Assembly (NCBI RefSeq): GCF_003334335.1
Contig: NZ_QOWQ01000170.1
Origin: Escherichia coli
GTDB taxonomy: Bacteria; Pseudomonadota; Gammaproteobacteria; Enterobacterales; Enterobacteriaceae
DNA length: 569 nucleotides
Strand: one strand, 5' to 3'
Position numbers and translations under genes: made by a program. Below the pieces are notes generated by a model. It was not told the DNA's origin and searched no databases. It saw only the letters and a program-made list of their open reading frames with translations. Below are positions 1 to 569 of this stretch, piece by piece. Position 1 is the stretch's first letter; every line of letters begins with the position of its first letter.

Positions 1-569
1 CCGGACCACCCGGACCACAGGGTCCGGCAGGGCAAACCGGCCCGAAAGGGGATAAAGGTGAACCCGGCGCAACAGGTCCGGCAGGTCCCGCAGGCCCTCG
101 GGGAGAAACCGGCCCCGCAGGTCCTGCGGGTCCCGCAGGCAGTGTCGCCAGTGTTCCGGATGCCAGCACATCGCAGAAGGGTGTGGTGCTGTTGAGCAGT
201 GCCACAGACAGCGCTGAGGAAAACAAGGCCGCCACGCCGAAAGCGGTGAAGGCAGCAATGGATGCGGCAAATGCAGCGAAACAGCGTGCAGAAGAGGTGG
301 CGAAGGCTGGGGCATCAGGCAGCAGTATGCCGGGACCCAAAGGCGATCAGGGGCCACCGGGGCCGAAAGGTGAAAAAGGTGAACCGGGAGCAACAGGCCC
401 CGCAGGAAAGGATGGTGCCGCCGGAGCGGAAGGTAAGGCAGGTCCGGCAGGGCCACGAGGTGAAAGGGGACCAGCGGGGGCGCAGGGTGTTCCGGGGCCA
501 CAGGGCCCTGCCGGAGGGCGAGGGCCGATGGGACCGCCCGGGTTGGATGGTAAAACCGGACCACAGGGA
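1..569 (+). CDS. Partial (5' and 3' truncated) phage/prophage tail fibre protein with collagen-like Gly-X-Y repeats; codon phase begins at nt 3
   Basis: Frame 3 (nt 3-569) is open for all 189 codons, while + frames 1 and 2 contain stops (TGA 193-195, TGA 247-249; TAA 53-55). Translation: [189 protein letters not shown]. Strict Gly every third residue over 15 and 26 consecutive triplets cannot arise by chance. Product call rests on recalled similarity of the central motif to phage tail fibre repeats; not verified by search. Confidence 0.85.
3..140 (+). repeat. Collagen-like triple-helix tract 1: 15 uninterrupted Gly-X-Y triplets plus closing Gly (coding repeat inside the CDS)
   Basis: Codons at 3-140 read [46 protein letters not shown]. 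Pro is enriched at X, and charged residues (K, D, E, R) occur in X/Y positions. Confidence 0.9.
141..332 (+). other. Non-collagenous interruption (64 aa) containing a phage tail-fibre-repeat-like motif (core about nt 177-263)
   Basis: Translation [64 protein letters not shown]. The core [11 protein letters not shown]...[12 protein letters not shown] matches my recollection of the consensus of the short repeat in lambdoid side tail fibre proteins (Pfam 'Phage tail fibre repeat'). Family assignment is from memory. Confidence 0.65.
333..569 (+). repeat. Collagen-like triple-helix tract 2: 26 uninterrupted Gly-X-Y triplets plus Gly, continuing past the window end
   Basis: Codons at 333-569 read [79 protein letters not shown], with no break in Gly periodicity. 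Confidence 0.9.

Follow-up and report, generated by a model that had tools for sequence, protein, structure and literature searches.

The locus examined here raises the question of whether a short peptide lying between two collagen-like tracts marks the encoded protein as a phage tail fibre rather than as a generic bacterial collagen-like protein. The window (the whole stretch of 569 nt of Escherichia coli DNA that was analysed) has a G+C content of 67%, and its frame +3 is open over nt 3-569, i.e., over its entire length. The original prediction had singled out nt 177-263 as carrying the signature of the short repeat found in lambdoid side tail fibre proteins; on the plus strand, these nucleotides translate exactly to the 29-residue peptide that had been flagged. 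When the 189-aa translation of the window was searched against Pfam with hmmscan, the family PF03406 (Phage_fiber_2, "Phage tail fibre repeat") was matched at nt 165-290 (aa 55-96) over the full length of the model (positions 1-42 of 42), with a score of 55.9 bits and an E-value of 3e-15. The proposed identity of the peptide was borne out by this significant match. It was the only PF03406 match in the window, as had been anticipated, and it fell, again as predicted, between two Gly-X-Y runs (nt 3-140 and 333-569). The coordinates 177-263 captured the core of the repeat but not its full extent, given that the unit starts with the residues D-A at nt 159-164 and that the Pfam match ends at nt 290. 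The following features were assigned within the window:

3-140, plus strand: C-terminal part of collagen-like tract 1, with 15 Gly-X-Y triplets and a final Gly (regular expression); Pfam Collagen PF01391, E=1.4e-8
141-332, plus strand: non-collagen insert of 64 aa (window aa 47-110) between the Gly-X-Y runs
141-158, plus strand: linker SVASVP (translation), not Gly-X-Y and outside the conserved columns of the family
159-290, plus strand: single copy of phage tail fibre repeat 2 (Pf2), 44 residues, assigned from Pfam, the Mu S match, the family alignments, and the shuffle test
173-400, plus strand: mosaic cassette comprising the Pf2 core, the helix, and the start of collagen-like tract 2, with an ancestry that differs from that of its flanks
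237-317, plus strand: predicted alpha-helix running from (T)PKAVK through the next 22 residues (AF2 models)
333-569, plus strand: collagen-like tract 2, uninterrupted Gly-X-Y (regular expression); two Pfam Collagen matches, E=4.6e-7 and 7.9e-7

The sole entry of the ORF listing for the window was a 45-aa ORF in frame +1 (nt 58-195), which overlaps the true frame and is spurious. On the minus strand, frame 3 contained no stop codons and frames 1 and 2 contained one stop each; these open frames are accounted for by the GGN/CCN-rich codons of the collagen tracts, and there was no evidence of antisense genes. An Rfam search of both strands of the window gave no meaningful match.

To obtain a measure of the repeat that did not depend on the window, an independent HMM was built from the copies of lambda Stf, K-12 StfR, Mu S, and P2 H, with window-derived sequence excluded. 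This model scored 59.2 bits on the window, compared with a maximum of 6.7 bits and a mean of -1.9 bits for 2000 composition-preserving shuffles of the insert; chance resemblance as the origin of the motif was rejected by this wide margin. Moreover, when the insert was compared by itself with PHROGs, many tail fibre and tail protein families were matched (best match phrog_988, E=1.5e-15), and a search of PDB sequences matched Mu tail fibre S aa 108-151 to the window repeat with an E-value of 3e-7. A protein homologue search with the insert (62 aa) recovered only 2 partial E. coli proteins, the query being short for the E-value of a 5.8-billion-sequence collection. A tblastn search of the phage collection with the insert gave no match, almost certainly because of the low-complexity filter, and hundreds of relatives were found by DNA and locus searches. 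At the level of sequence, nt 159-290 is thus confirmed to be a single copy of phage tail fibre repeat 2 (Pf2, PF03406).

The original prediction had named a set of 16 residues as characteristic of the repeat family. To examine these, known copies of the repeat were aligned, namely those of Ur-lambda Stf (aa 351-393, reconstructed), StfR (aa 456-503), Mu S (aa 109-151), and P2 H (aa 167-206 and 210-250). In an alignment of 7 copies, D-A, K-G, L, S, T, S, E, A-A-T, and K-A-V-K were invariant. When 35 diverse copies with pairwise identities below 80% were aligned, K16, G17, L21, T25, E30, A33, A34, T35, K37, A38, and K40 were invariant (K16 corresponding to window nt 177), and D10, A11, Q20, S22, A24, S27, P36, V39, and D44 were conserved in at least 90% of the copies. 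The residues named beforehand proved to occupy invariant or near-invariant columns. From D-A through K-G and the 27 residues that follow, the window copy retains all 11 of the invariant and 8 of the 9 near-invariant residues; the exception is a Leu (CTG, nt 189-191, within VVLLSS) at the position where Gln is found in at least 90% of the 35 copies and in 119 of 124 DNA copies. By manual count, the cores of lambda Stf and of the window are identical at 20 of 29 positions. PF03406 was not reported in StfR (gene stfR, L005:4050-7412) by a default Pfam scan; when the filters of phmmer were switched off (--max), a clear copy was recovered at aa 456-503 (34 bits). Absence of the family from StfR was accordingly rejected; the filtered scan had missed the copy, probably because of composition bias.

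The gene from which the window derives was located by a 50-nt exact search of IMG/VR, which returned one contig (L003). The whole window is identical to L003:2750-3318 (minus strand) and lies within a 500-aa ORF at 2438-3940 (minus strand), in which the PF03406 match scored 54.0 bits (E=1.3e-14). Collagen-like tract 1 extends upstream beyond the window to ORF aa 136, and collagen-like tract 2 extends downstream beyond it to about aa 406. Along this ORF, the following parts were recognized:

ORF aa 2-133, outside the window: PF08400 phage_tail_N (Pfam, E=2.6e-41)
ORF aa 136-254: collagen 1 (Pfam and regular expression)
ORF aa 262-302: Phage_fiber_2 (Pfam)
ORF aa 319-406: collagen 2 (Pfam and regular expression)
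After collagen 2: C-terminal domain of about 90 aa, without a Pfam match

In addition, Pfam gave a weak match to Alanine_zipper at ORF aa 104-137 and no match to PF06820 (PfC) in the 500-aa ORF. Collagen 1 is interrupted by the sequence GDPGGPPG, which lies between Gly-X-Y runs at ORF aa 136-192 and 194-256.

The genes upstream of the fibre ORF encode a minor tail protein resembling gpK, a tail assembly protein resembling gpI, and the central fibre gpJ (1155 aa; L003 4421-7888, minus strand). Downstream lies a 191-aa ORF whose product is 90% identical to an annotated "tail fiber assembly protein" of phage PhiR5_2 and unrelated to lambda Tfa (E=0.085); in E. coli genomes, the gene at the corresponding position 3' of the fibre gene is annotated as DUF4376. 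Further downstream of the fibre genes, the contig carries a gene for a YadA-like (Eib-type) trimeric autotransporter (L003:89-1363, minus strand); an OmpC-family porin gene (L003:12564-13727, minus strand; 496.5 bits versus an NCBIfam cut-off of 484) lies upstream of the tail genes. E. coli prophages with a matching gene set align to 70-78% of the length of the contig at 94-96% identity; in E. coli LZSFT34, the fibre gene likewise follows J. All DNA relatives of the window were annotated as tail fibre or as "prophage tail fiber N-terminal domain-containing protein", and they included E. coli prophages, PhiR phages, and orf-401 of P-EibA. As judged from its sequence, the gene thus has the features of a lambda-type side tail fibre, i.e., a PF08400 N-terminus and a location downstream of J in a lambdoid tail module.

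The repeat itself is widespread. When 1.84 billion representatives of 50%-identity clusters were searched with a profile, 5889 proteins were recovered at E<=0.001, and at E<=1e-10 the number was 1782; in viral contigs, at least 553 loci were confirmed by scanning. Of the 80 best ORFs, one, two, three, four, or five copies of the repeat were present in 22, 26, 30, 1, or 1 ORFs, respectively. Collagen runs were found in 18 of these 80, and most of the 18 carried, as does the window, a single Pf2 between two runs. The expectation that full-length fibres often carry several copies therefore held for fibres of the P2-H type (58 of the 80 sampled loci, with 2-5 copies), in which the repeats follow one another with a tandem period of about 44 aa, but not for lambda Stf, StfR, Mu S, and most fibres of the collagen type, each of which has one copy. 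Three long arrays (P0012, P0011, and P0003) contained 22 matched stretches in 3377 aa, 17 in 1746 aa, and 12 in 846 aa, respectively.

Comparison of the window with its nearest relatives revealed a mosaic structure. Nucleotides 1-172 and 401-569 are 97-100% identical to the tail-fibre genes of PhiR5_2 and E. coli LZSFT34 (99-100% for nt 1-172 taken alone), whereas identity to the same genes drops to 63-70% over nt 173-400. Conversely, the cassette (nt 165-400) shares 98.7% identity with the tail-fibre gene of E. coli JNEC-KY176 and 97.0% with that of E. coli 2013C-3033. This contrast in identity between flanks and cassette indicates that the fibre gene arose by recombination between known alleles. 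On the left, the breakpoint falls at about nt 172/173, where the Pf2 core starts, and the cassette (nt 173-400) includes the first ∼22 residues of collagen 2. Relative to PhiR5_2, 45 nt and 36 nt, both multiples of 9, are missing from collagen-like tract 2 at nt 365/366 and 499/500; this absence of whole Gly-X-Y triplets fits the collagen length polymorphism described by Ghosh et al. 2012 (PMC3368898). A 56-nt direct repeat (nt 30-85 and 351-406; 82% identical; 321 nt apart and in frame) brackets the Pf2 insert and encodes GxxGPKG(D/E) followed by 11 further residues in each collagen tract. Recombination between the two copies would remove Pf2 in frame and leave a fibre with a single collagen domain.

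What kind of protein the window encodes, and what in it is being preserved, can be decided from these observations. A generic bacterial collagen-like surface adhesin of the Scl/Lcl type, in which the likeness to the tail fibre repeat would be incidental, might be suggested by NCBIfam matches to SclB, Lcl, and SclA. However, these arose from the Gly-X-Y tracts and remained far below the curated cut-offs (68.3 of 325 bits for SclB, 63.4 of 500 for Lcl, and 56.6 of 400 for SclA; NCBIfam NF038329, NF038330, and NF046116). LPXTG or signal-peptide evidence was absent, the insert alone matched PHROGs tail fibre families, and the ORF contains PF08400 and adjoins gpJ; we regard the adhesin interpretation as extremely improbable. 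The original prediction of a tail fibre, as opposed to a generic bacterial collagen-like protein, was supported by this N-terminal domain and by the position of the gene just downstream of gpJ. The annotation is thus settled, with the window coming from the interior of a side-tail-fibre gene of a prophage. It has also been considered that Pf2 might be kept mainly as a patch of DNA homology for the swapping of distal fibre modules, with its peptide being of little importance. Such a role would suit the position of the left breakpoint at the start of the Pf2 core, the location of the Mu repeat just before the boundary of the invertible G-segment, and that of the lambda repeat just before a segment common to P2 H. 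However, at the DNA level the Pf2 core shares only 70% identity with its nearest relative, and the key peptide has been retained through synonymous changes. When the 44 codons of Pf2 were compared with those of the closest full-length relative, 14 were identical, 17 differed only synonymously, and 13 differed in the encoded amino acid; AATPKAVKA was unchanged despite 8 synonymous changes. Moreover, among 124 distinct DNA copies, every synonymous codon occurred at the invariant columns. Because the peptide was kept while synonymous codons turned over, these codon comparisons show purifying selection to act on the peptide and not on the DNA. The DNA-patch proposal is largely refuted by these data and appears quite improbable, and recombination at module borders can still be a by-product. 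The best explanation for the locus, and one in which we have high confidence, is that the window carries one Pf2 copy in a side-tail-fibre gene of a lambdoid (P-Eib-like) Escherichia prophage with EPclC/EPclB architecture.

The structure of the insert was modelled with AF2. For a monomer comprising ORF aa 252-318 (67 aa, 35-row alignment), the mean pLDDT was 66 and the N-terminal half was unstructured; the only confident part was a helix at residues 36-62 (∼27 aa, beginning at PKAVK; block pLDDT 75-91). When three copies were joined by 40-residue Gly/Ser linkers, the same helices were predicted at lower confidence (mean pLDDT 41.5). Given these models, the helix is probably a short trimeric Ala-rich coiled coil, for which we infer the trimeric state, and a disordered N-terminal half in the monomer would be expected if folding occurs only in the trimer. 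In the arrangement that we propose, the Pf2 units of three chains would meet as a small non-collagenous node, in which the N-terminal half (DAS..KGxVQLSSATxS) would be extended and would pack on the helix beginning at TPKAVK. Such a node would link two rod segments, would keep the chains associated and in register, and would supply the fibre with a knob or flexible joint. Pf2 would then be a structural element of the shaft, neither catalytic nor receptor-binding.

Several observations point to this arrangement. In Ur-lambda, whose side tail fibres are trimeric and are carried on the tail tip of the virion, the proximal rod (aa 102-393) is followed by a hinge (aa 394-422) with an angle of about 107-134 degrees (Yu et al. 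2025, PMC12617516), and the lambda Pf2 (aa 351-393) is the last element ahead of this mapped hinge. The Mu S repeat lies where the constant part of the fibre gives way to the variable part, the middle globule of EPclB has been provisionally assigned to Pf2 (PMC3368898), and the one confidently predicted helix starts at PKAVK. On the other side, the AF2 models are of low confidence for both the monomer and the linked trimer, and the proposal leans on the lambda position and on micrographs in which EPclB was aggregated and seen at low resolution. Yu et al. 2025 (PMC12617516) model lambda aa 102-393, Pf2 included, as a coiled-coil rod; the tandem arrays of 2-5 or more copies in fibres of the P2-H type are more in keeping with a bead that builds up the shaft than with a dedicated hinge; and the window copy has Leu in a column that is Gln in at least 90% of copies. 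Alternatively, Pf2 may serve for docking or recognition, with a chaperone or assembly protein, another fibre component, or a glycan on the host surface as its partner. Residues of the surface type (S, T, D, E, and K) are strongly conserved over thousands of fibres whose tips are otherwise unrelated, a DUF4376 or "tail fibre assembly" gene lies directly 3', and both the structure and the function of Pf2 were stated to be unknown by Ghosh et al. 2012 (PMC3368898). However, docking has no known partner; copy numbers of 1 to 22 and tandem arrays favour a structural bead; the mid-shaft position is distant from the distal receptor-binding tip; and the downstream protein is unrelated to lambda Tfa, yet lambda has the same repeat. 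On balance, we consider docking unlikely. For Pf2 as a trimeric junction node that provides a knob or flexible joint in the fibre shaft, the evidence tips somewhat in favour, and it is this reading that we infer. The more specific proposal, that Pf2 serves both as a mechanical joint and as a nucleus that initiates folding and sets the register of the neighbouring collagen triple helices, is put forward only tentatively; if true, one conserved 42-aa module would account for the "jointed" side fibres of the lambda type. Any such trimeric form and hinge role of Pf2 would concern the whole family rather than the window specifically.

The repeat and the collagen-Pf2-collagen layout were already known, the former as a curated Pfam family and the latter as an arrangement in E. 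coli prophages published in 2012. The comparison with known systems begins with fibres that share the repeat but differ in their surroundings. Like the window ORF, lambda Stf (in Ur-lambda, orf-401 and orf-314) has PF08400, is encoded after J, and has one Pf2. In contrast, the rod ahead of its Pf2 is a long Ala/Ser-rich coiled coil instead of collagen, its Pf2 is followed by the hinge and a gp37-like distal rod, and its C-terminal domain and chaperone are unrelated to those of the window locus. P2 gpH and Mu gpS/gp49 carry the same repeat as the window; unlike the window ORF, they are contractile-tail baseplate fibres that lack both collagen and PF08400. By sequence and profile searches, Mu gpS was the only carrier of the repeat among PDB sequences (5YVQ, 9KI1, and 8JU3). 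The Mu Pf2 (gene S, L006:2459-3973) is separated by ∼18 aa from the G-segment inversion boundary that follows it, at about aa 170, and sits where the constant, baseplate-proximal part meets the exchangeable distal part of the fibre.

The closest counterparts are the collagen-like proteins of EHEC prophages catalogued by Ghosh et al. 2012 (PLoS One 7:e37872; PMC3368898). In that work, recombinant EPclA (PfN-PCoil-Col-PfC) was found to be a thermostable trimer; EPclB was described as PfN, PCoil, Col, Pf2, Col, and PfC, and its electron micrographs were read as three globules (PfN, Pf2, and PfC) joined by two stalks, the middle one being Pf2, a reading given by the authors as provisional; and EPclC, among which ORF-401 of P-EibA is listed, has two Col separated by Pf2, another C-terminus, and usually no PCoil. 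The domain order PfN, Col, Pf2, Col, C-terminal domain of EPclC and EPclB is that of the window ORF, which agrees with EPclC in lacking both the long PCoil and the PF06820 C-terminus. At the DNA level, P-EibA orf-401 (EPclC) matched window nt 1-261 at 89%, and L0121 of 933W (Z1483/L0121) matched the Pf2 region of the window at 82%. Relative to these EPclC/EPclB relatives, the window differs as an allele: its cassette is 63-70% identical to that of the nearest full-length relatives, its collagen lengths are off by multiples of 9 nt, and it has Leu for Gln. Given the domain order and the presence of GDPGGPPG at the matching site of collagen 1, the present gene is, by sequence comparison, assigned as an EPclC-type allele.
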